DNA of 39,017 bases, taken from assembly GCA_900617105.1 (NCBI GenBank), contig UYFQ01000619.1, forward strand, positions 1 through 39,017, in the 5' to 3' direction. Made by a program: the position numbers and the translations under genes. Source of the DNA: Hydrurus foetidus. Lineage: Eukaryota. Each line of letters starts with the position of its first letter. Positions within the stretch are counted from its first letter, which is position 1. Below are positions 5,730 to 28,704 of this stretch, one piece after another. Under the pieces are notes generated by a model. That model was not told where the DNA came from. It did no database searches and worked only from the letters and a program-made list of their open reading frames with translations.

Positions 5730-6642
5730 TGTAAGACTAAATACAAGATGTCACCTTCTAGCGTTCGCAGCGAAGGTGGAGAAGCAGCTGCAGGCTACTG
5801 TCTCAATTCAGTGAGCTATCGAGTAGACGAAGCTGTGAAGTACAACGTATTAAATTCTGATTAGAGTTTACAGATAGCCACGCAAAAGAGCTATCAGAAC
5901 AGTTCATGACAGTGAAACTACCTTGAGACAAAGTTCACAGCGAGATGTGTTGTTCATAGCATGTGCTTGAGGAACGTTGCATGAATGCTTATAGTAACGA
6001 AGTGTTTTGGATCTACTGAAGAATTATGAAAGGCGAACGTTCATTTGCGTGAGGTCAGAGGGTTCGTACTAACTGATACATGGCGATAGTACAGGGGTAC
6101 GTATGCATGTATATGTGTATGCACGTACATGCGTGAGTACTAACTGCTATATGGCGATATTATAGAAGTACGTATGCATGTGTTCGTATAAGAACGTACA
6201 TGCGTAAGTACAGTGGTACTTACGTATGTACGCCTATACATCTATGTACTACGCTATTGGCGATCGTACATACGTACATATTAGATATGTACATACATGT
6301 GTAAGTACGTGTGTGTACGTATGCATATAATAATTTGTACTAACATGTGCACGTACGTATGTACGTGTATGCGTGACCATACAATTGTACGCTATGCTAC
6401 ATGCGTGCGTGCGTACGTACGTACATATTGACTATGTACGTACATGTGTAAGTACATGTGTGTACGTATGCATAAATGAGTATGCACTAACATGTGTAAG
6501 TACGTGTGTACGTGTGCATGTTATCATATCTGCATGTGTACTTACGTACGTACGTGCCGCATAACGTACATGTATATATTTGTAACTATATTTGCAACTA
6601 TATTACTACAGACATATCTTGATAGAATCAAGTGGTCTGACA
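5730..6642 (-). repeat. 5' LTR of Copia A (913 bp)
   Basis: Minus termini TGTCAGAC...GTCTTACA (7/8 inverted repeat). PBS follows immediately, and the outer end interrupts the Copia B integrase frame. Contains degenerate GTAC/ATGT-rich tandem duplications (~6065-6560). The partner LTR is not in the window. Confidence 0.75.
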
Positions 6643-6741: not shown

Positions 6742-6937
6742 TGTGGTCGTCTGGGAGACCTTGGTCCCAGTTCCGACCTAGACTACCCAGATTCCGTAGA
6801 CCTCTGGGTAGGACTCTGGGTAGGCTTCTAGGTTAGCCACATGCACTAATCCTATACCTTCTCCACTAAGTTTTCATAGTAAGCTAACCAGCATTCTCCC
6901 TCGCACCATCTTTAGCCTAGATTCCTTCTAGGCCACA
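6742..6937 (+). repeat. Gypsy 5' LTR
   Basis: Direct repeat of 11961-12156, termini TGTGG..CCACA. Confidence 0.97.
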
Positions 6938-7036
6938 GTGACGTCACTCAGCCGTTTAAATTCCCTCTTTCCGTCTTCTATAACCCTACCCCATTTGTCA
7001 TTTCCATCTCCTTGAGATAACTGCTCGAATCCCGCC

Positions 7037-8026
7037 GTGGAGGACTTCCAGAAAGTTCCTCTCCTCAGAGATCGTCTTTATCTTGAAGAGCTTCGTCTTA
7101 TCAACGAAGAACTCCAGTTTCGGAGAGATACAACTCCCGTAGAAGGAGGGGCAGCAGTCGTTTCGACTGACCAAAATCTCCCAACTTTTGTTGAAACTTC
7201 GATTCCTCAACCGAGAAGTCGTTCCAGAGTCGTAAGACCTGTGCTCCTTCGGGAAGACGCGAGTTCATCGCAATTTGCCACCTCTAATCTCCATTCTACT
7301 CCTTCCACACGCCAAACACAACCCCGATTCAATTCGGCGACTTCAGCTTTTAAGCCTAGGAGACCGACTTCCAAGTCGAGAACATCCTTCCCAGGGCCTC
7401 CTGCGACTTTAGTCAGCAGTGAAACAGGGTTTGCAACTCAAACCTTGCGGAATTTGTTGCTGGACAACGATTTCCTGACAGAATTCCCAGTTTCAGTTTC
7501 AGAAACTGCGCCGAAAAAAAACTCGCACTTTCGTTCGGAGTTAAACTCCAACTTAAGCCTAAGCTCTAAGCCTAGCGAAAAATACATCCGGGGATTATAT
7601 CCTGTTGAAGCACCTCCCGCTTCTAACGAGGTGCCGGAAGACATTTTTCCTTACGAAAAAGCTCCGAAAATAAATCCTACATTACGAGTAGGAAATCTCG
7701 ATAGAATTGCTCCTTTGACAAGGAGAAAGTCGAAGATAGCCCTCCTGCGTGCTGCAGCGACTCCGCTCTCAGCAGGGAGAACACCCTTGACCGGGCCAAA
7801 AGTCTTGAAACCCAATTTGAAATTGGTGACAAAATCACCCTCCATCATGGAAGACATAGTTGACCAGTTTGACTCAAGTCCTGGTGACTTTGGCGAAGAG
7901 TTAGGTGAGATAGTTGATTCTAACTATGCCGAACTCTCTGACAACGAACTCGTTGACGAATTTCTCGCCGAACCCGGTGATTTACAGCAATCATCGGAGA
8001 CAAATCCATCGCAAATACCACTTTAA
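7037..8026 (+). CDS. Extra 5' ORF of the Gypsy element, S/P/T-rich, probably disordered, function unknown
   Basis: 329 open codons (GTG start) upstream of gag, in a different frame from gag. Confidence 0.5.
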   Translation: MEDFQKVPLLRDRLYLEELRLINEELQFRRDTTPVEGGAAVVSTDQNLPTFVETSIPQPRSRSRVVRPVLLREDASSSQFATSNLHSTPSTRQTQPRFNSATSAFKPRRPTSKSRTSFPGPPATLVSSETGFATQTLRNLLLDNDFLTEFPVSVSETAPKKNSHFRSELNSNLSLSSKPSEKYIRGLYPVEAPPASNEVPEDIFPYEKAPKINPTLRVGNLDRIAPLTRRKSKIALLRAAATPLSAGRTPLTGPKVLKPNLKLVTKSPSIMEDIVDQFDSSPGDFGEELGEIVDSNYAELSDNELVDEFLAEPGDLQQSSETNPSQIPL

Positions 8027-8112
8027 GTGCTATAACTGATGTGACAACCCAAGTTTTACCTGTGCCTACTATTACTAGAGCACAACAACTTGAGAACCTT
8101 TTTAATACACGC

Positions 8113-8388
8113 ATGTCTGGTGGTATTAACTTGAATAGTGCACTTGTTGTACTCGACTCATTCGAAATTTCGGGTGAGTTAGCCTTGAAATTTCAAACTC
8201 AAGCGAATGCTTTTGCAAATAACTTTACTTTAAGTCAAGTAATAGTTTATCCTGCAACTGAGATCATACAATTTGCTTTTGCAAGTGATCCCAAATTTAC
8301 TATTCTTACGAAAGATAAATTTGCGACGTGGCTTGAACACGTTACAGTCGCTCAGGCTGCCCAAATTGTCACAAAGTACTATTGTTAG
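8113..8388 (+). pseudogene. Truncated putative gag N-terminus of the Gypsy element
   Basis: Helical-looking ORF (MSGGINLNSALVV...) that ends abruptly where the pol frame takes over; no zinc knuckle or protease follows. Confidence 0.45.
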
Positions 8389-11300
8389 TTCAAGAAAAAG
8401 ACTTGAATTACTGTATACTGTGAAAGGTATTTGTCCTGAATTTGACAGTTCGGAGAAGAATAAGAGATGCCCTCATTCTGGTGTAGGTACCTTGCCTGTT
8501 CACTCTTCAAACACAGACAGAGTCGCTAACTGTCTGGATGTTGAATGTGCATGTCAGTCTAGCGCCGCTGGGGCACAAACTATGCGCGACGACTGTAACT
8601 ATGTATCAACCCATAGTGGTGTTGCTTGTACTCGTACATACACCCTCGCACACATAAGTGAACAGCCAGATAGTACTGTGACAGCTACTAGAGTGGAAAC
8701 ACCTAGTGGTATCGTAATCTCTTGTGACGAGATAGATAATGAGAAAGCTGATACTTTTTCACCATTCGTTCCTGAACAGACTCAGTCAGATACCTTGCCT
8801 GTAAAGCTTGAGGAGTATTTATCGTTGATTACTTTTGAAGGCACACAAAGCCAGATAGAAGATATGAAACGCCTCTGTCGCAAGTATTCAGATATCTTCA
8901 GTGATAAACTGCCAGCTAAACCTGCGAAACTACCGCCATTTGAAATCAATGCAGATAAAAAATTATGGCACAGTCCTAAAAATAGGACTGCCGTTCGTCT
9001 ACAATCCGTAAGAAAAGAACGTGAAATTAAACGGTTCATCGATGAGATGTTACTGTCAGGGATCATCGAGAAATCGGATGCAGTGTACTATTCCCATCCT
9101 GTAATTGTACAAAAAACAGCGGAATTATTCAGATTTTGTATTGACTATCGACTTCTGAATAAGTGCACTGAGGCATCTAGTTGGCCTCTCCCGAATATTC
9201 GTGCCCTCCTCGAAAGAGTCGGCCATTACAAGCCAGATACATTCGGGGTTATGGATTTAACCTCAGGCTACCATCAAGCACCTATGGACGCTGCATCCAA
9301 AGTCTTGACTGCGTTTATTTGTTATTCTGGCGTATACCAATTCACCAGGCTCCCCTTCGGTCCTCGAAGAGCTCCATCTTACTTCCAAGAGATGATGACA
9401 ACTGTTGTCCTTAATGGACTCATTTACACTAAATGTGAGATGTACTTAGATGATTGTATCGTCTTTGCCCGAGGACACGATGAATTCCTGGAGAGACTAG
9501 AACGAGTCTTTCGACGTTTTCGTTGTTTTGGTCTATTCCTAAAAGCAAAAAAATGCAGATTTGGTATGAAACAAATCGACTATGTGGGTCGCCAAATCTC
9601 TTCTCAAGGCATTTCGATGTCGAAAGAAAAGATTGAGTCGGTATTAAATTTTCCGAAACCCAAATCACTAACTGCTTTACGCAGCTTTTTAGGATTGGCG
9701 AACTATTTCAGAAATTACGTACCGTTTCATTCAGATATAGTTAAACCTCTGCAACAAATGATTGATCCCAAAGGGAAAAAGAAATCTTCAATTCTTTGGA
9801 CCCCCGAAGCTGAAAAAGCTTTCGTTAAAATTCGAGAACAAGTTGCTCGTTGCCCATTGCTACACTTTATGGATGAAGAATCACCAGTAGAGTTATATAC
9901 TGACGCTTCCGATTATGGAATTGGAGGTGTACTTTTCCAAAGGGTAAATGATGACTTAAAACCTATTTCATTTGTCAGTAAGTCGCTAAGCGCAACACAA
10001 TGTAAATGGTCGACAATCCAAAAGGAATCTTACGCAATATATCATTGCTGTAAACAATTGGACTCTCTTATAAGAGATAGAAAATTTAAAATTTTTACTG
10101 ACCATAAGAATTTAACATTCTTAAGTCAAGACCCATCTACGATGGTGAACCGTTGGTCTATAGCGCTACAAGAATTAGACTACTCAATTGAATACATTGC
10201 TGGTTCAAATAACCATCTGGCTGATGCAATGTCACGCTTGTGCCCCAACCTAACTCCTGTTCCTACAGTGCCAGATAGTGTTCCTTCAGACATTGCTGAA
10301 GCAGTTGTATCAGCTTTACACGAAATTATACCCATGTCTGATTCACAACTTGAAAAAATAGAGATGTCTCATAACTCCATGGTGGGACATGGAGGAGTAC
10401 TACGAACCATTGAACACATAAAAGGGTTAGAAGAACAATGGCTTGACATGGAACATCATGTCAAAGACTTCATTCAAAACTGTGCCTGCTGCCAGAAGAT
10501 GAGTGTCATCAAAATTCCTGTGCATATTCACAGATATACAACGTCAACATACAGACCGTTCGATACCGTAAATATTGATTACGTTGGTCCATTACCGGAT
10601 AACGGTTATGTGTTAGTAATGATATGTTCATTCACTCGATGGACAGAACTTTACTGGTGTTCGAACAACACAGCACATTCGGCTTGCGAATGCCTTCTCC
10701 AATTTTTTGGCAGGTTTGGAGCACCAAGCATGATCAGGTCAGATCGTGGTCCTCATTTTATGAATGAGATTGTAAAAGAATTTTTAATTCGAACAAATAC
10801 TCCACACAACTTAACGTTGGCATATTCTAAACAAGAGAATGCAATAGTGGAAAGAATTAACAAAGAAGTAAATCGCCATTTAAGAGCATTTACTTTCGAT
10901 TCAGCAAGTCTAGAATCATATAAACTTTGCCTGCCTTTTGTGCAGAGAATCATAAACAGCGCGGTACACTCAAGTACTGGTGCTTCTCCAGCAAGCTTGC
11001 TGTTCGGAAATCAGCTTAATCTCAATAGAGGTATTCTGACTAAATTTCCAGATAATCCTGAGTTACCGATCTCAGCATCTAAAATTATAGCTAATATGCT
11101 ATTAATACAACAACAGCTCAACAACATGGCTGAAACTCACTTAAAGAGCGCTGACAAATTACATGTCGCTGTCAATGTAACTCCAGAAACAATTTTTGAA
11201 ATTGATTCTTATGTTCTTGCTCTTAACCCTAAAGGGCCAGAGACAAGATTACACTGTAAATGGCTTGGCCCATTCAAAGTAGTAACCTTTGATAAAAGTC

Positions 11301-11653
11301 AATACACTATACTGAACTTGATCACTCACAAAACCCGTGATGTTCATGCTAGTCAATTAAAGCCATTTAAATTTGATCCGACTAAAAGATCCCCGACTGA
11401 TACAGCACGTCGTGATTACATGGAATTCTTCATTGAAGACATTCTTTCTCATGTTGGAAATAAGTCTAAACCATCCACAATGAGATTCCATGTTAAGTGG
11501 TTGAATTACGACTCAACTCACAATACGTGGGAACCTTGGCAATCCCTACGCACAACAGATCAATTACATAAATATCTTCGTGATAACAACATGGTTAAAA
11601 CAATACCGAAACAATTTCGAGATAAACCTCCATTTGACATGGAGCACCCGTGA
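8273..11653 (+). CDS. pol: Gypsy pol: RT, RNase H, integrase, chromodomain (no protease motif found)
   Basis: RFCIDYR, MDLTSGYHQ, LPFG, YLDD; TDASDYGIG, TDHKNL; H-H-C-C, IDYVGP, SDRG, VERIN; C-terminal chromodomain FFIEDIL..FHVKWLNY..NTWEP. Confidence 0.95.
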   Translation: MLLQVIPNLLFLRKINLRRGLNTLQSLRLPKLSQSTIVSSRKRLELLYTVKGICPEFDSSEKNKRCPHSGVGTLPVHSSNTDRVANCLDVECACQSSAAGAQTMRDDCNYVSTHSGVACTRTYTLAHISEQPDSTVTATRVETPSGIVISCDEIDNEKADTFSPFVPEQTQSDTLPVKLEEYLSLITFEGTQSQIEDMKRLCRKYSDIFSDKLPAKPAKLPPFEINADKKLWHSPKNRTAVRLQSVRKEREIKRFIDEMLLSGIIEKSDAVYYSHPVIVQKTAELFRFCIDYRLLNKCTEASSWPLPNIRALLERVGHYKPDTFGVMDLTSGYHQAPMDAASKVLTAFICYSGVYQFTRLPFGPRRAPSYFQEMMTTVVLNGLIYTKCEMYLDDCIVFARGHDEFLERLERVFRRFRCFGLFLKAKKCRFGMKQIDYVGRQISSQGISMSKEKIESVLNFPKPKSLTALRSFLGLANYFRNYVPFHSDIVKPLQQMIDPKGKKKSSILWTPEAEKAFVKIREQVARCPLLHFMDEESPVELYTDASDYGIGGVLFQRVNDDLKPISFVSKSLSATQCKWSTIQKESYAIYHCCKQLDSLIRDRKFKIFTDHKNLTFLSQDPSTMVNRWSIALQELDYSIEYIAGSNNHLADAMSRLCPNLTPVPTVPDSVPSDIAEAVVSALHEIIPMSDSQLEKIEMSHNSMVGHGGVLRTIEHIKGLEEQWLDMEHHVKDFIQNCACCQKMSVIKIPVHIHRYTTSTYRPFDTVNIDYVGPLPDNGYVLVMICSFTRWTELYWCSNNTAHSACECLLQFFGRFGAPSMIRSDRGPHFMNEIVKEFLIRTNTPHNLTLAYSKQENAIVERINKEVNRHLRAFTFDSASLESYKLCLPFVQRIINSAVHSSTGASPASLLFGNQLNLNRGILTKFPDNPELPISASKIIANMLLIQQQLNNMAETHLKSADKLHVAVNVTPETIFEIDSYVLALNPKGPETRLHCKWLGPFKVVTFDKSQYTILNLITHKTRDVHASQLKPFKFDPTKRSPTDTARRDYMEFFIEDILSHVGNKSKPSTMRFHVKWLNYDSTHNTWEPWQSLRTTDQLHKYLRDNNMVKTIPKQFRDKPPFDMEHP

Positions 11654-11960
11654 ATTTTATCTATGAAGATTCCTCCTATTTTTTTTAATCAGTTCACAAC
11701 TGATTTTTTTTTTGGAGGTTTAGTCAGTAAGAATCTGACATAATCATTCACGGGTAGCCCACTCTACACCTTCTTTTTGACAAAATTGTTTTTATACTTC
11801 ATGTTTTATTTCAACTGCCCTTCCTTCTGAAGCGCTAGACTAGTTTCACAAAATTTAGTTTTAGGACCCTTCATTTCGAAGCGTTAGTCTAGATGCTCTT
11901 CTTAAAAGCGCTAGACTAGTCAAACATTTGCTAAATCTTTTTTGAAATAAGTAGGGGTAG

Positions 11961-12156
11961 TGTGGTCGTCTGGGGGACCTTGGTCCCAGTTCCGACCTAG
12001 ACTACCCAGATTCCGTAGACCTCTGGGTAGGACTCTGGGTAGGCTTCTAGGTTAGCCACATGCACTAATCCTATACCTTCTCCACTAAGTTTTCATAGTA
12101 AGCTAACCAGCATTCTCCCTCGCACCATCTTTAGCCTAGATTCCTTCTAGGCCACA
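11961..12156 (+). repeat. Gypsy 3' LTR
   Basis: Direct repeat of 6742-6937, preceded by PPT. Confidence 0.97.
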
Positions 12157-14469: not shown

Positions 14470-14494
14470 CTCGATGCGCTGATTAGTTTAATTC

Positions 14495-14811
14495 TGTTGG
14501 GGATTCTCTGGATCCGGATGCTTTGCACTCGTGGCGACCGGTGACCCAAGGCCCGTAAAATAGACTTGTGTTGCGTAATTACTTGAGAATTAAACTTGTG
14601 CACCGGCATCAATCAAGACGGCAACGAAGCTTTACATTTCAAGGCAATTGCACATGGTCATCCGTGTTGAAGACAGATGAATGGGTGGCTACACTAGCCC
14701 ACACATCCAACGGTCCGCGGTCCTCACCACTGGGGTGCCCACCGCTGACCGTCGGGGTCCATGCATACACTATACAACTACAGCAGTGTCTTTTCTCCGG
14801 ATATTCCAACA
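14495..14811 (-). repeat. 5' LTR of Copia B (317 bp)
   Basis: 6-bp terminal inverted repeat TGTTGG..CCAACA; ends 25 nt before the gag ATG. The second LTR is not in the window. Confidence 0.7.
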
Positions 14812-16148: not shown

Positions 16149-16716
16149 TTATTTGTTATACTGCAACATCACAGAACCTTCAGTATAATCTTCCAAAGAT
16201 TGCCTCATCTGACCAATTGTGAATGAATTCTTCAACATAGAAAACACCCTTTCAGCTGATGCTGGAGACGGTGTCATTGTCATGCAGTATCGAGTAAAGT
16301 TAGCTAAGTTAGGTAGTAGCTCGTGGTAAAGGCTCCAAAAATTAGTACATCTTTCCATTTGGGTAGCGAAAATATTCTCTGATGGTAATACTTCAAATTC
16401 GTTCACCAACCGCTTATATAAATACCACTCCCCTCCCATCTCTTCCACGTCAGAGACAGTGAAAAAGTTTAATACTTCAGCTGCTCTCTTGAATTGAAGC
16501 AAAGTATCAGGCCTCCCTATAGATTGTCTCATTGTCACTGGGTTGCATATCTGCATGTCTTATACAACTCAATATCTGAGGCCAACTTGCCCATGATAGT
16601 GCCATGGTAGTAATCGATAGCACCTTTCAAAATTGTCTTTGCCTGCACTTCAAGATCCTTAAAAAGTGCATCCCCTGTAAGCTCCTCAAATGTCTCGCAT
16701 CCGTTCAAAAGCGTAC
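16149..16716 (-). pseudogene. hAT transposase C-terminal remnant (dimerisation domain), frameshifted near 16545
   Basis: FW..Y.ELLPNL..F......PSPASAERVFS..K matches the hAT dimerisation motif; truncated at the foldback element. Confidence 0.8.
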
Positions 16717-19581: not shown

Positions 19582-19869
19582 AATCCCATTCAAAAATTTC
19601 AACAGCAAACAGCGGAGGGCTGTCCGGCTGTGTCATCAGATCTGAATGTACAGTACCAGCGGTAGACAAAACTTGACCCATGGTCAGAACCTGACCCACA
19701 GAATCTTCAAATCGATCCGTTGATGGAACAATGTTTTCAAATGATTTGGTCTCCTTTTTGAATAATGCTTGTACTTCTCTTCATATCGTTGTGTCTTACA
19801 ACTTAACAATCGAAGTTGCAACTAGTGCTTTTGGGTCATTTCTGTCTCGTTTCTCTTTTGGGCTCTAAA

Positions 19870-21840
19870 ATGTCAGCGTTTGATGACCCAACTTTGGCGG
19901 TTCAAACTTTAAAGTTAACACGATATCAGGATCTATCAGAGTGGCACTTATGTGCATCTGAACAGAAAGAACTGTGCAAGAACTTAATTGACAGCGGACT
20001 TTCCGTCAATGCATGGTCTTCTCGACATTCTATGAATTATTCTTCAGTGAAACGTCACATGAGGAAGTATCGATTATGGCAATCTAGTGGAATAGACACA
20101 TTTCACAATTCTGGAGGAGGGCGACCACCCATCATAGATGATACTGGAATCATTAACATTAGGAAAAACTTGAGAGAGAATCTGGCTTCACAGAGTTGCC
20201 AACAGTCGATGATTACACAGTTTCATTTACGCGTCGAAACAGAAGCAGCAGAGACTAGAAAAAGACGAGGAGTAGCTGGATCAGACATAAGAGTCTCGAA
20301 GAAAACCATTCAAAGATTCAAAAGTCAGAACAGTTTTGTCGAGTCGAAATGTCAATTCAAAACTCACGCGAGGATATTTGCTGAAAGTGATCCGAGGAAC
20401 CTCTTTTCATTTGCCGTAATGAATCAAGCCTTTCTATCGGAGCGTGATGCGGCGATGTGCTTTAACTGGGACGCAACGCAGTACTGTGTTGATGCTGAAG
20501 GTCACACATCAATTGTGAAATGTGAGGGAGAAGATCGGCAACGTAGTGCAACATCTCTAAGCGCTGGAGGACTTGGATTTGCGATCAAGTACTATCACTT
20601 CCATAATGCCTGTGGGGATGTAGCACCGGCTGTCTTCATTATTGCTGACGACAGCATGAGCGAGACTGAGTTATTCGTTGAAGAAGTCACTGGTCTAAGT
20701 CACACGCAGCTTGTTGATGCAACTGGCTTCTTGGTCTTCACAAAAACTCGGAACTGCAATGCAGAGTTCTACCGCTGGTACGCACTCACGGTGGTCGCCC
20801 CCTTCGTCATCAAGTGCAGGGAGTCCTACAATAGTCAAAACATTGACAAAACTCCGATGCGAGCTTTCGTTGTCTGCGATGGTGAGCCTTCACAGATTCA
20901 AGTCTTTCAGGAGCACCGCATCTTGGAAATAATGGCTGAGGCGCTCATCGATTTCGGCAAGTCACCTGCGTCATGCAGTGCTATCACCCAAGCCTCAGAT
21001 GACAGCGACTTCTTCAAGGCTTCAAAGAAAAAACTGGTCAGGATAAGAGAGACTGATTATATTAATCAAGGATTGGATGGAAGGATCAAGCAGATTGTAT
21101 CGGGGAGGGTTACTCTGGACGGGGAGTCCCGGTTCACGAGTGCAAAGAAGTTACTGATTTGCAACTCGCTACAGCAAGTGGTCTATTCTATCAAACATGT
21201 CATGACACCGGAGATTGTGAAGACTGGCTATAAGAGAATCGGTCAGTATCCAGTATCCTTCCTGACGTCGATGAGTCGGTGTTCACGGGTCATATCCGCC
21301 AGAGACATGGAGCATATGCAAGAGGCGCTACCTGCTATGGTGGAAATTTTCAGGACGAAGGGCATTTTGACTGAGGAGCAAATGGATGCAGCGGGAATAC
21401 TGAGCGTGAATGATGAGGCATCAAACAACCGACCTAAAGATGATCGACCACTCCATCAGCAGAGATCCGTCATTATGAACTCGGTGGACTGCATCGCTCA
21501 GTACCGATCCTATGTGAACTATCGGACAGCCGAGCCGGCTAGACGAGCAGCGGCTGCAGAGTTGCGTGAAGTATCAAGAGCTGTGAGGGAGCGGAAGGCT
21601 GAGGATGTCAAGGCTCGAAGAGAATTAAAGGACGCGGAGAAATTGCGACGATCCAATCTGACTGCGGACGAATTGAAAGCTGAGAATAAGGCCAAGAGGG
21701 CGGCTTCCAAAGCCGCCAAAACTCAACAACAGCAACAACCAGTCATTACAACTCCAGAGGAAAGCGACGATGACGATGGGCTGTTCAATGAAATGGAAAT
21801 TGAGGATATAAGTGGCAACTCGAATACCGTGACAGTTTAG
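19870..21840 (+). CDS. Intact DDD transposase (DD39D)
   Basis: N-terminal HTH-like region with GGRP; catalytic motifs FNWDATQ, VVCDG, TQASD..FFK (compare pogo QPLD..F); lies between the TIRs. Confidence 0.8.
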   Translation: MSAFDDPTLAVQTLKLTRYQDLSEWHLCASEQKELCKNLIDSGLSVNAWSSRHSMNYSSVKRHMRKYRLWQSSGIDTFHNSGGGRPPIIDDTGIINIRKNLRENLASQSCQQSMITQFHLRVETEAAETRKRRGVAGSDIRVSKKTIQRFKSQNSFVESKCQFKTHARIFAESDPRNLFSFAVMNQAFLSERDAAMCFNWDATQYCVDAEGHTSIVKCEGEDRQRSATSLSAGGLGFAIKYYHFHNACGDVAPAVFIIADDSMSETELFVEEVTGLSHTQLVDATGFLVFTKTRNCNAEFYRWYALTVVAPFVIKCRESYNSQNIDKTPMRAFVVCDGEPSQIQVFQEHRILEIMAEALIDFGKSPASCSAITQASDDSDFFKASKKKLVRIRETDYINQGLDGRIKQIVSGRVTLDGESRFTSAKKLLICNSLQQVVYSIKHVMTPEIVKTGYKRIGQYPVSFLTSMSRCSRVISARDMEHMQEALPAMVEIFRTKGILTEEQMDAAGILSVNDEASNNRPKDDRPLHQQRSVIMNSVDCIAQYRSYVNYRTAEPARRAAAAELREVSRAVRERKAEDVKARRELKDAEKLRRSNLTADELKAENKAKRAASKAAKTQQQQQPVITTPEESDDDDGLFNEMEIEDISGNSNTVTV

Positions 21841-22217
21841 CAAATATGTTTGTGCCTGACACAATTTGAAGGATTCTGTTATCATATCCGCGGCGTCACC
21901 TCTAAAATGATGTCGGATCCTATCTGGCATCATGCGGAATTTTGCGGAAGCCTCCATTGATTTTTTTAAGTACCCTGTGGTGAAATGTTTTTCGAAATCA
22001 GTAAGTAAATGGCATCGTAAATATCAGGATATTGATGGCTATTTACGCAACTACCATTTCAACGGAGATGATCAGCACGAATGCTCGCTGATGTGGAACC
22101 GGCAGTAATTTTCCTGAGGCTGGATCGTGCTTACTTCGCTATGTTCTGACCATAATGGTCATTGACATTCGTGGATGCGACGGATCGATTTGAAGATTCT
22201 GTGGGTCAGGTTCTGAC

Positions 22218-22570
22218 TGTAGTAATATCAGTATTATGTAGACTAGATATTCCGTATACGAATTGTGATGCTATTATCTGTATTTCATATTTGAACCACA
22301 CGTACGGTGTTGCACCACAGCAGTACCGTACTACATACGATATGACGTATTTGATCTAGGATAGCCATCAACCTGTTGCGACAACTACTGACTACACTCG
22401 ACCACCACTGCGTTGCAGCAGTGCTAATTAACCCAAACTCGTAGCCGACAGCGAAACTTCTCTTCTGAGTCCAGACAGAGCGAGTGAAGCCGCATCGGAG
22501 AGTGCAGTGGGGAGCTTGTGACCAACCGTATGGGACATACGGCACACCTTTAAGTCCACATTTCACAACA
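22218..22570 (+). repeat. Copia C 5' LTR
   Basis: TGTAGT..ACAACA; direct repeat of 28154-28506. Confidence 0.97.
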
Positions 22571-22607
22571 TAATTAGCACTCATCGTTGCAACAAGAAGT
22601 TGCAACG

Positions 22608-23826
22608 ATGAAAGGCCGTGGAAGTCCCCACCACAGGGACGTGGACGAGGTTATTTCGCGGGTCGTGGTGGGAGAGGATCTCCAGCGACACCAACCACAA
22701 CCGTGGAAACATTCCGACGATCGGAGCATATTTGGATCTACCACCTGGGAAGGACATTGCCCATGGAGCGGTTACCAAATGGATGGCAAAACTAAAGGAG
22801 TACGCTATGACAACATTCAAATCAAGAGTTAGTATGATATTTGGTGCAGATGGAACCTTAGGAGATTACCCAGTCTACGCACTGCCAGACCAACCACAGG
22901 ATGGCGCAACAGTTTATGACAGAAAGATATGGGAACTGTCGATGGTAGACCACAATAAAAACATCAAAACTCTAGATGAGGACAAAGGAAATCTATACGG
23001 TGCAATGTTAGGACAGATGTCCGAAAGCTCTAAAACTAGAGTAGCTGAAGTGCAGCTAGGAGTCGAAGCAGAGAATGAGTTCGAGCCGAGGAAATTGCTG
23101 CAAGCAATTCTCGCAACTCATATCGGAGATTCTACGCTGGGAGTAGCTCATCAGATGTACGTCATTACACAGAGATACAACGATCTAGTTATGGGAGGGC
23201 ATGAAAATCTGAGCATGTACTATACGAACACGAAGTCAGCACTCACTGCTATACAGCAGGCATATGAGATGGCTGGTCGTGGAGGAATTGACGACATATA
23301 TATGGAGAGTCAGATGGCAGTGAAATTTATTCTGGGACTGAACAACGCCTATAGCGAGTTCAAATCCTTCTTCACTAATGGACTAAAGCCCTGGCCAGAT
23401 TGTCTTGAGACAGCGTATCAAGAAGCTGCCAAATACAACCCTAAGAGAGCAGCCACCAACTCACCAGCAGCTATGGAGCGTGCGAATGCATTCGCAATGA
23501 CCGGAAGAGGAGGCAGAGGTAGCAGAGGAGGATACCCTGGAGGACATAATGGAAAGAGTGCACCCAATGCAAAGTGGGTGAAGGACGGAGCAGACTCACC
23601 GGAGGAAGCAACGAGAGAGAAAGGATCACCTGTGGGAGCCTACACTGCCAACAAATCCCCACCAGCGGGGTACAGACGAGGTCCGTGTAATAACTGTGGA
23701 AAGTACGGGCATCTTGCCCGGGAATGCAGAGCTGAGGCAGCAGACACTGTCGCTCAGTACTGGGGCGAGGAAGGAGGCAAGAGCCCAGGAGGAAAACCGA
23801 CTGCACCACCTGGGAAGGGAAAGTAA
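22608..23826 (+). CDS. gag: Copia C gag (likely start ATG 22608; two apparent 1-nt deletions in the first ~100 nt)
   Basis: CCHC knuckle CNNCGKYGHLAREC, GQMSE..K, FILGL, RGG repeats; own stop codon at 23824-23826. Confidence 0.85.
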
Positions 23827-23899
23827 GTCACTTATATGATTATTTACATGATGACATAGCTAGTAATGTGAATAACCAAGTGACTGTTGATGTGAATAA

Positions 23900-26800
23900 A
23901 ATGTTAAGCACGTACGAATATCTAAATATGTACAAATTAAATTCATAGATGACGAAGCTCCAGTGTCGGAGACCCCAGCAGTAGATAGCAACATATTTAG
24001 CATAGATATCACGAATGATTCTGATGTATTTGCTGACAATCAATTGCTTCTTGACACATGTGCTGGTGAATCTGTATTTAGAACTGCTACACTGTTCTAT
24101 GACATTGTGCCTGCTGTTACACCCATGATAGTTAATGGAGTAAATAGTAGAGGAGAGCCGATGGTTATCAGAGAGTGCGGGACGACGGACTTTGGATTAG
24201 TATACTTTGACCCTAATTGTATAGCTAACATCTTGTCTTTTGCTAATATGGTAAATAATTGTTACTCTATGAAGTATAGTAGTGGGAGCGATTTTTACAG
24301 TTTGCAGATTAAAAGAGGCGGATGTTGCTACTATTTCAACAGAGATGAAAAATATAATATATATATATGTAATTTAGACACTATGGTAAGTAAGCCTAAG
24401 TTAATGTTAGTTACGACAGTTACAGATAAGATGAAGAAATATACAGTTAGACAGGTAAAACAAGCTGAGTTAGCTAGAGAATATCAGAGGAAATTAGGAT
24501 ACGCTAGTCCAGGACAGTTAATTAAGCTGATAGGACAAGGTAAACTAGTTAACAGTAATATTACAGCACAAGATGTAGTTAGATCTTTGGATATCTGGGG
24601 TCCTGACTTAGGCTCCCTAAAGGGAAAAACGCCAAGCCATCAGGCACAGGTTGAAGAGGAGCAACCACTGTTAGATAATATACAAGAGAGAGATCAGATT
24701 ATGTACATAGACATTATGTTTGTTAACGGCAATCCATTTTTAATTGCCGTTGTTAAGCCATTAGAATATACTATGGTAAATAAGTTAAATAACAGAGCCA
24801 ATCTTACACTGTGGACTAGCTTAGAGAGCGATATTAGACATATAACTAAGTATGAATTCAGTTTGAACTTAGTGAGAGTTGATGAAGAAGGTGCTATCAA
24901 TTTTAAATGGTTTGAGACTAAGTTAGCTACTATAGGTACGGCATTAGATACGACAGGTGCAAGAGAGGCAGTTACCGTAGTTGAGCGTAAGATCAGACAG
25001 ATTCAAGAGAGAGTCAGAGCAGTTATCAATACACTACCATTTAGATTAGCTGAGATGTTAGAAGGATGGTTGGTAAGATATGCTGTTAACCGTATAGTAT
25101 TAGTTCCAGCAAGGAATATCGTAGACTACGTCAGTCCCAGAGAGAAACTATACGGTAGAAAGATAAATGTAGATAAAGAATTGAAACATGGTTTTGGTGA
25201 CTATGTGCAAGTGCATTCTGATAATATTGATAACAGTAATAAAGCCAGAACTTCAGGTGCTATCGCTCTGATGAGTGCAGGTAATCTAGAAGGATCTTGG
25301 TGTTACATGCTACTCAGTAATGAACAGATAATTAAACGCACTAAAGCCACATCACTACCCATGCCTGATGAAGTGATTACTTGCCTTAATGGATTATCTG
25401 ATAAGAGATACATTAATAAGGGTAATAACACTAATCAACCTGTATTTGAACAGAATAGGCGTGTGATTGATGATGATGGACTTGATTATGATGATGATAA
25501 AATTTATAATAATAATATGAGAAGATTTAGTAATTCACACGTACCACATTCAGATGAAATGTATGATGACTCATATGATGTTGAACCACAAGTGATGCAT
25601 GCACTGCCTGATGTGCCAGTGATGAATGAAGAAAATGATTTTAATGATATGCCTGATAATGATGCTATGATAGATGATTATGCAGTGCAGCTAGAGACTG
25701 ATGATGCTGAATTTGAACCTGTTGAACATGACGATGTTGAATGGAATATGATGCACCTGATGTAAACAGCACGTACGTTGATGACAATGTACTTACATAT
25801 GATGAAACCATTGATGCCATTGAAGATACGTACACAGTAGATGACGTACTTACAGATGAACTACCTGAGATAGAACAGCCTGCTTTGAGACGTAGCGCTA
25901 GAAATCACCAGCCAGGTAGATGGGCATCCAACAGAGGAAAAAGGAACATAGGATGTTGTATACCTGAAGTGTTGCATCGCCTTGATTGTTCATATGCTTT
26001 TAACATGACTGTTAAAGACGGTATCGATAAGTTAGGTGATATAGCTGTCGATTCCATTAGAAAAGAAATGCAACAGATGTGTGAGAAGGATGTGTGGGAA
26101 GGAGTGTTGATCATTCACTTACACCTACACAACGTAACAACATCATAACCAGTAGTATGTTTTTAAAAGATAAGTATACTGCTGAAGGTAAATTTGATAA
26201 GTTAAAATCAAGATTAGTTGCAGGAGGTCACTTACAGGATAGAGATATTTACGATAATGGCTCATCACCTACTGTTAGTACTACTAGTGTGTTTATTATT
26301 GCTTCAATTGCTGCGAAAGAGAATAGATCATTAGCTACGATAGATTTTCCAGGAGCATTTTTAAATAGCGATATGCCACTTGAGGGTAGTCACACGGTGT
26401 TTATGAGATTGAATAAATATTTGACTGATGTTTTAATTTCCATTGATAAATCATATATGAAATATGTTAATGATAAGGGTACATGCATTGTTAAATTGAA
26501 GAAAGCATTGTATGGATGTGTTGAATCTGCAAAATTGTGGTATGATAAAATTTCACATGACTTGTCTGTATTAGGCTATACTGCTAATGCTTATGACATG
26601 TGTGTGTTTAATAGAACTGAAAATAATAAATCACAAACCACATTGATAATCCACGTTGATGACATGATGATATCGTGTTGTAATGACAAATATGTTGATA
26701 TGGTAATTTATGAAATTGAAAAACTATATCCCGGACTAACGAAACATCGAGGAAAAGTACTTAATTATATAGGTATGACTTTTAATTTCGAGTCAGCCGG

Positions 26801-27609
26801 GGAAGTTAGGATAACCATGGAGGGATTTGTCAAGGAGCTGCTAGAAGACTGTAAAAAGATTCTAGGGGTGGCACCGACACCGGCCAAGTCGGAATTATTT
26901 TCCGTTAAACCGGATACTTCTGACCCACTACTAACCACTTCTGCTCGTGAGTATTTCCATTCAATACAGCGAAGCTGCTATACCTTAGCAAAAGGGCAAG
27001 ACCAGATATCTTGACGCCGGTAGCGTTCTTGACTAAGCGGGTGACAAAGCCTCAAGTGGAAGACATGAAGAAACTGGAACGTACTATACAGTACATACGG
27101 GATACTAAAGACTTAGGCCTCACCCTAAGAGTCGAAGACCCCATCACCATCACCTGTTATGTCGACGCTTCCTTCGGCGTACATAGCGACATGAAGAGCC
27201 ACACTGGAAGCGCCATCACATTAGGGAAAGGCGTAGTGTATGCTAAGAGTTCAACTCAAAAGCTAACCACGAAGTCGAGTACCGAAGCAGAGCTAGTAGG
27301 ACTGAGTGACTCAGCCAACCAAGTGCTGTGGACCAGACTATTCCTCATAGACCAAGGATATCAAGACAGGAGCGCCATCATTTTTCAAGACAATAAATCT
27401 ACCATCCAACTTATCAACAACGGTCGCTCCAACAGCGAACGTACGCGACACATCAATATCCGGTACTTCTTCCTACATGACCGGGTAAAAGAAAAGAAAT
27501 AACCATCATTTATAAATCAACCAACGACATGTTAGCAGATATGCTAACTAAACCACTTCAAGGAGAGCAGTTCAGAGCTTTCCGAGATAAACTACTCGGA
27601 ATCACCTGA
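23900..27609 (+). pseudogene. pol: Copia C pol (protease, integrase, RT, RNase H), with frameshifts near 25740, 26110, 26965 and 27500
   Basis: LLLDTCAGES; IDIMFVNG, VERKIR; KSRLVAGG, IDFPGAFL, KALYG, HVDD; YVDASF, SSTEAE, QDNKS, ADMLTKPL. Confidence 0.92.
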
Positions 27610-28153
27610 GTATTCCACTCCATCAAATTTCTTCTACCTACGCTTTGCCAACCCATTTCTGCTACCTTGGCCAACATCAACCCTATGTATTATATGAATC
27701 TGTTTTTATGAATCTGCAATTCCATCGAATTCCTTCTGCCCTACAACATCAACCTCCAAGACCTGAACACTCAAGACACCTACACTCGAGCCTACACCAC
27801 ACATGGTCGAGACACATCAACTGAAGACACATCAAGACGAAGACTCCAGAACCAACATTCCTACGATAAACTACTTCTAACCGCCAACTTTGCCAAAAGC
27901 AAACTTCCTTCTATAACCGACAATTCCAACCGCCAACTATTTCTACCGCCTACAAATTCCTACAGCCAACTTCCACTACATTCTTTTCCGACTGAGATCG
28001 ATTTTCAAGACACCGACGTAACATTCCGGAGCCATTGATGAAACTTTATTTATGATTAATATTGAATGAACATGTATGAATTAATTTAATGCCTTTGAAA
28101 TAATAATTGAATAAACTTGTTTGAATTGAATACGATAACACATCATAGGGGTG

Positions 28154-28506
28154 TGTAGTAATATCAGTATTATGTAGACTAGATATTCCGTATACGAATT
28201 GTGATGCTATTATCTGTATTTCATATTTGAACCACACGTACGGTGTTGCACCACAGCAGTACCGTACTACATACGATATGACGTATTTGATCTAGGATAG
28301 CCATCAACCTGTTGCGACAACTACTGACTACACTCGACCACCACTGCGTTGCAGCAGTGCTAATTAACCCAAACTCGTAGCCGACAGCGAAACTTCTCTT
28401 CTGAGTCCAGACAGAGCGAGTGAAGCCGCATCGGAGAGTGCAGTGGGGAGCTTGTGACCAACCGTATAGGATATACGGCACACCTTTAAGTCCACATTTC
28501 ACAACA
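28154..28506 (+). repeat. Copia C 3' LTR
   Basis: Direct repeat of 22218-22570. Confidence 0.97.
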
Positions 28507-28704
28507 CTGACCATGGGTCAAGTTTTGTCTACCGCTGGAGTATCGGTTATGATTCTTATTTCATGCACGATACACGATACTAGTAGGGTGGTAGCTCCAC
28601 TAGCTGCTCTGTCACAAGTCGTAGTGTCCGCAAATTGGGAACGGATAGTCTGAGCAACTCAGGAGGGAAGACGAAGACATCTATATTGTGTGAGGCAACA
28701 AAAG

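Follow-up and report, generated by a model that had tools for sequence, protein, structure and literature searches.

How does a Copia retrotransposon start reverse transcription when no tRNA site follows its 5' LTR? This question is raised by Copia C, an element in the 39,017-nucleotide stretch of Hydrurus foetidus DNA that was analysed here (hereafter the window). A sequence-only reading of the window had noticed that the 11 nt directly after the 5' LTR of this element lack a TGG and are the exact reverse complement of 22420–22430, inside the LTR itself, and had proposed that the element is self-primed.

We concluded that a full-length LTR retrotransposon of the Copia superfamily, inserted recently, occupies 22218–28506 (+). 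It has two direct LTRs of 353 bp (TG...CA), a TSD and a polypurine tract (PPT), as expected of a Copia element. The 5' LTR boundary, said earlier to be fixed by the second LTR and the TSD, is indeed secure, as the two 353-bp LTRs differ by 2 mismatches and CTGAC stands on both sides. The features of the element are as follows.

22213–22217 (no strand): left TSD, CTGAC, seen in the sequence
22218–22570 (+): 5' LTR, 353 bp, TG...CA; differs from the 3' LTR only at 22532 and 22536
22420–22430 (+): predicted self-primer, taken to be RNA nt 1–11, with the A of CA as predicted +1 (start inferred); exact complement of the PBS
22431–22570 (+): R-U5 region looped out by the primer/PBS helix; inner stems predicted in the fold of 22420–22640
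22571–22581 (+): PBS position, TAATTAGCACT, without TGG, seen in the sequence
22581–22611 (+): 13-bp hairpin directly 3' of the PBS, perfectly paired, whose 3' arm contains the gag ATG (22608)
22608–23826 (+): gag, encoding a CCHC zinc knuckle; in the window copy a single frameshift close to the 5' end
23900–27609 (+): pol (PR-IN-RT-RH), a separate ORF; four frameshifts in the window copy
28145–28153 (+): polypurine tract ATAGGGGTG adjoining the 3' LTR; a similar G-rich tract occurs in relatives
28154–28506 (+): 3' LTR, direct repeat of the 5' LTR, with a second copy of the primer sequence at 28356–28366
28507–28511 (no strand): right TSD, CTGAC, seen in the sequence

The domain order gag (zf-CCHC), PR, IN, RT, RH is that of Copia, and the RT matched Pfam RVT_2 (E = 2e-20). 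PR, IN and RH were recognised by motifs and not by Pfam models; no Pfam integrase or pre-integrase model matched the PR-IN region, and the pol profile matched no solved structure. A search of the element for a chromodomain gave no match, and the Ty3/gypsy order PR-RT-RH-IN was also not found. The acidic motifs of RNase H were conserved across 64 aligned relatives (alignment A2). Compared with intact relatives the window copy carries five frameshifts, in which decay and long-read error look alike. The flanking genes (calpain, PIG-Y) are eukaryotic, and the analysis took the host to be probably a stramenopile-like protist of fresh water.

The PBS TAATTAGCACT at 22571–22581 occurs once in the window, and its reverse complement occurs only at 22420 and, in the 3' LTR, at 28356. 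The match between PBS and LTR ends at 11 nt on both sides. Results showed that none of 5000 dinucleotide shuffles of the LTR reached this length (mean 4.2 nt, maximum 10), which confirms the exact complementarity noticed earlier and agrees with the rough chance estimate of about 1e-4 that had accompanied it. ARAGORN found no tRNA genes in the window. Copia C carries the sequence mark of a self-primed element: its PBS adjoins the 5' LTR and is complementary to that LTR, and a site for a tRNA 3' end is absent.

The same DNA holds further retrotransposons, one of which shows a comparable arrangement.

14495–14811 (−): inferred 5' LTR of Copia B, 317 bp, TGTTGG...CCAACA, with a 6-bp terminal inverted repeat; predicted self-primer at 14596–14587
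14485–14494 (−): PBS of Copia B, GAATTAAACT, 10 nt, which pairs with its own LTR and not with that of Copia C

Because Copia B has a single LTR, the LTR boundary was inferred from the 6-bp terminal inverted repeat. Its PBS matched its own LTR over 10 nt, a length reached in 0 of 1000 shuffles, and the cross matches with Copia C were 4 and 6 nt. Copia B lies at 14811–12134 and 6735–6643 (−) and is a distant member of the lineage, 27–34% identical in PR-IN, truncated and split by a Gypsy insertion. A young Gypsy chromovirus occupies 6742–12156 (196-bp LTRs with 1 mismatch, 4-bp TSD GGCC); its 5' LTR is followed by neither a TGG nor an own-LTR complement (at most 4 nt), only by the palindrome GTGACGTCAC. 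Copia A, at 5730 and downstream (−), encodes a CCCH finger and an SH3 domain and has a canonical TGG PBS directly after its CA end; judged by this site, it is a putatively tRNA-primed control within the same DNA. Short diverged tandem repeats (71-nt, 147-nt spacing) lie at 6066–6528, beside the truncated end of Copia B. The window also contains an ORF of 677 aa at 19807–21837 (+) that is transposase-like but has no Pfam match, and a hAT dimerisation-domain fragment at 16152–16559 (−).

Close relatives of Copia C were abundant (51 gag clusters and 107 long pol clusters), and DNA of the element was found in freshwater and sediment sequencing runs. An RT-motif pattern retrieved 130 loci, 122 from metagenomes and 8 from genome collections, most of which were too short. 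In 34 of them a terminal or direct repeat made the PPT-LTR-PBS arrangement readable, and 31 remained after L028, L076 and L124 were dropped as redundant. The RT identity of the relatives to Copia C was 34–57% (29 aligned). An RT DNA pattern had 0 matches in viral contigs, and no relative was retrieved from viral, metagenome or genome contigs when pol, the gag alignment or the pol alignment served as the query. For the most part the relatives are short-read contigs in which the two LTRs have collapsed into one, and 4 of the 31 were joined through the terminal repeat; both arms lie on one natural contig stretch in 27 of 31, and a second LTR copy fixes the LTR end in L039, L055 and L130. The eight genome-collection loci (L123–L130) are bacterial-MAG contigs with this eukaryote-type RT motif and likely reflect binning contamination.

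We examined these relatives with a blind rule, in which the LTR start was taken from the PPT, candidate LTR ends were taken from the terminal inverted repeat, and the longest perfect complement of the PBS was then sought in the element's own LTR. The rule was satisfied by 24 of 30 distant relatives, with matches of 9–17 nt (each p ≤ 0.017 against 300 shuffles), and failed in six; L045, which had no PPT match, was unscorable. The remaining 7 loci gave matches of 10–17 nt only with hand-placed LTR ends, and these matches are weaker and partly circular because the repeat was seen before the ends were placed. Nine further long loci included a match in L128 (16 nt) and in L129 (10 nt), an ambiguous case in L022, and six loci without upstream DNA. 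A TGG was absent from the first 8 nt of the PBS in all 32 elements. The PBS start was semi-conserved, mostly (T/C)AAT (T/C in 28, A in 27, A in 26 and T in 25 of 32). Predicted primer lengths clustered at 9–11 and 14–17 nt in the 31 loci plus the window element.

The PBS of Copia C contains the palindrome TAATTA, and the PBS of many relatives is AT-rich, such that complementarity might arise by chance in AT-rich, partly palindromic sequence. Several controls addressed this. Across 25 elements, the match to the own LTR averaged 11.9 nt, vs 4.8 nt for the LTRs of other elements; cross pairs of at least 9 nt numbered 4 of 600, all between elements that share the first 9 PBS letters, and the 25 elements had 23 distinct PBS 9-mers. 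With the PBS slid 20–60 nt downstream, 0 of 32 elements gave a match at any of the five offsets used. The match was reproduced by none of the shuffle, cross-LTR and slid-position controls, and we regard the chance explanation as refuted, its probability being close to nil.

The sequence-only reading had called for a check of PBS/LTR covariation across family members, and the relatives provided it: pairing was kept across distant relatives while the letters changed. Sister pairs with support in the tree altered both arms together. L006 and L078 differed by one compensated change (support 100/99), and several paired-arm changes were found in each of the pairs L001/L004, L008/L074 and L019/L048. 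Four runs yielded 444 contigs of close relatives, in which every one of the 21 positions that varied in at least 5% was inside the loop and none was in the arms; taken alone, this difference between arm and loop is not significant (0/22 vs 21/140 positions, Fisher p = 0.08). The contigs from all four runs diverged just past the PBS. We concluded that, at the level of sequence, the signature of self-priming in this broad and divergent protist Copia lineage is real and well controlled.

A different primer might nevertheless be suggested by the PBS of Copia C itself, which resembles the complement of the tRNA-Ile anticodon arm. That is, a host half-tRNA-Ile(AAU) could act as primer, as predicted for the plant Copia lineage Bianca, and the LTR complement could be incidental or a vestige. 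Among 68 viral loci ARAGORN identified 27 tRNA-Ile(aat) genes whose anticodon arm pairs with the window PBS, with 10 Watson-Crick pairs in the best variant and, by inspection, 8 pairs plus one G-U in the commonest arm (13/27). These 27 genes with an AAT anticodon (L131–L198) lie in viral contigs, several from giant-virus bins. The length of the match is partly built in, because the search pattern demanded 8 of its letters, and the genes compared came from viral contigs and not from the host; the match also works only if the primer ends at nt 36 and 2 nt are left between it and the LTR end. Bianca is further similar in having separate gag and pol ORFs (55% of Bianca elements), and 1/2 tRNA-Ile is given as the primer in 92% of 260 elements (PMC6317226). 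Unlike Bianca, however, the relatives of Copia C keep the own-LTR match and not the tRNA-Ile match: all 24 relatives that passed the blind rule matched these tRNA-Ile genes over at most 6 nt, vs 9–17 nt for their own LTR. Tested on tRNA-Ile, the PBS did not keep complementarity to a tRNA 5' half, which elements of the Bianca, Osser and Bryco type do keep. Priming by half-tRNA-Ile would leave both the covariation and the CA start described below unexplained, and we judge it very improbable.

In self-priming, the LTR arm would mark the 5' end of the RNA. Of 31 relatives, 17 have an arm that starts precisely at C|A, an initiator-like context (background 0.055, p = 5e-14), and 23 have a CA inside a 4-nt window. 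Position −2 was T in 18 of 25 relatives; the window element has G there. Most predicted primers end in a semi-conserved ATT(A/G). The CA start with T at −2 resembles the oomycete initiator TCATTCT, an INR that is apparently also present in a diatom (PMC3599244).

We folded the predicted RNA over 22420–22640. In this fold (z = −4.56) the primer/PBS helix closes a structured loop and is followed by the 13-bp hairpin. The predicted probability of the helix depended on where the RNA starts: it was 0.89–0.92 for starts at 22417–22420, 0.82 at 22412, and 0.04–0.53 for four starts farther upstream (22218–22400). It fell below 0.5 in 6 of 32 elements. When the fold was checked against the three-duplex 'pretzel' (U5-IR and leader stems) that Tf1 self-priming requires (PMC10085805), a U5 stem was predicted, but the leader is predicted to fold into a hairpin of its own. 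No Rfam ribozyme matched in the window or in 19 loci, and a ribozyme as the source of the primer was rejected on this ground.

The hairpin at 22581–22611, overlooked in the first reading, pairs perfectly over 13 bp, so that the start codon of gag is buried in it. The sequences of close relatives part just past the PBS, yet some loose contig ends suggest that a hairpin is kept in them. Its presence bears on another explanation, in which the helix between the RNA 5' end and the PBS is purely structural (serving packaging, dimerisation, translation control or masking of a site) and priming is left to some other primer or to the gag-proximal hairpin. Fungal GalEa gives a precedent: it has no tRNA PBS, and its LTR is followed directly by a hairpin and by CTAATTAGT or CTGATCAGT (PMC5445492), close to the TAATTAG in the PBS of Copia C; the semi-conserved PBS start of the relatives and the strong hairpin of Copia C would also fit. 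The hairpin is weak or absent in most relatives, however (−0.4 to −12.7 vs −18.7 kcal/mol in the window), and is thus not general to the lineage; no tRNA site remains either. In every scored case the helix starts at PBS position 1 and is perfectly Watson-Crick, which is needed for a priming register but not for mere structure. The GalEa authors, in the account given in PMC5445492, found no LTR complement, and such a complement is present in the lineage of Copia C. A purely structural helix is therefore unlikely in our view, if less so than a tRNA-Ile primer.

We consider it highly probable that Copia C primes reverse transcription with the predicted first 11 nt of its own RNA and not with a tRNA, in the manner of Tf1. 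Tf1 RNA pairs with the PBS through its first 11 bases and is cut by RNase H between bases 11 and 12 (PMC7175516). By analogy, transcription of Copia C would start at A22420, and nt 1–11 would pair with the PBS, enclosing a loop of about 140 nt. The RNase H of the element would then cut after nt 11, just 3' of ATT(A/G), and the freed 3'-OH would be extended by RT into U5. When LTR elements replicate, the primer is copied into the PBS as the plus strand is made. The same step here would write the self-primer back into the PBS, such that any change arising in the primer would reach the PBS as well and the arms would stay perfectly Watson-Crick while their letters drift. The lineage as a whole likely works like Tf1. 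The self-priming inference of the sequence-only reading was well supported by the comparison, given the own-LTR complement at PBS position 1, the changing letters and the CA start; its accompanying claim, that self-priming is known only from Gypsy elements, was wrong. Neumann et al. (2019) predicted self-priming for 89% of 203 Ty1/copia TAR elements and cited an earlier proposal for Houba and Osr-1 (PMC6317226).

Copia C resembles Tf1/Tf2 of Schizosaccharomyces pombe in that 11 nt at the predicted RNA 5' end are complementary to a PBS adjoining the 5' LTR, in the lack of a tRNA site and in the presence of RNase H. It differs from the Tf1/sushi group (Ty3/gypsy chromoviruses) in its Copia domain order, its RVT_2 RT, the lack of a chromodomain and predicted primers of 9–17 nt across the lineage. 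The element falls outside Tf1/sushi, and its likeness to Tf1 plausibly reflects convergence.

Canonical plant Copia elements do match Pfam integrase models in the PR-IN region, unlike the lineage of Copia C, which suggests distance from plant Copia. The plant TAR elements (Houba, Osr-1) are a close parallel, as they too belong to the Copia superfamily, have a 5-bp TSD and have a PBS complementary to their own 5' LTR, predicted by a similar criterion (PMC6317226). TAR, however, is a plant lineage in which most elements (79%) are described as having one gag-pol ORF, whereas gag and pol are separate in Copia C and its closest relatives; some farther relatives are fused, which makes this a weak feature against TAR. 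The lineage is probably separate from TAR.

The integrase N-terminus of Copia C lacks HHCC, in which it may resemble diatom Copia. By description, the diatom CoDi elements (CoDiI, CoDiII, CoDi6; Maumus et al. 2009, PMC2806351) are likewise divergent protist Copia with TG...CA LTRs of similar size, and the main text of that paper mentions neither a tRNA nor a primer-binding site. Fungal GalEa, with its Conserved Hairpin Site, is also a Copia without a tRNA PBS and shares a TAATTAG core just after the LTR and the KSRLV RT motif (PMC5445492). Unlike in Copia C, the GalEa site is reported to pair 12–41 bp downstream, with no LTR complement found; GalEa further has a single ORF, HHCC and QTDD, vs HVDD in Copia C (PMC5445492).

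Self-priming in Copia was thus already known as a prediction, from TAR (PMC6317226), and the protist lineage is a new instance within the literature searched, where subscription journals were thinly covered and no report of self-priming in diatom or other protist Copia was found. With confidence only a little above even, we favour a broader account, in which self-priming without a tRNA arose in a large and deeply diverged lineage of Copia from aquatic protists, separately from its origins in Tf1/sushi and in TAR. Its variable primers (9–11 and 14–17 nt) would run from the initiator A to the ATT(A/G) cut site, regeneration of the PBS from the primer would drive co-evolution of the arms, and the lineage may link to the PBS-less fungal GalEa.

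Only for the Gypsy-type Tf1 has self-priming been demonstrated by experiment; for Copia it had been predicted in a single plant lineage. A large lineage of protist Copia in which compensatory variants occur naturally would show that tRNA primers have been given up repeatedly. It would offer ready primer/PBS pairs for testing what a Copia RT and RNase H need in primer length, ATT(A/G) end and flanking stems, and transcription start sites that are predicted from DNA alone. It would also explain why annotation tools that seek a tRNA PBS overlook such elements.
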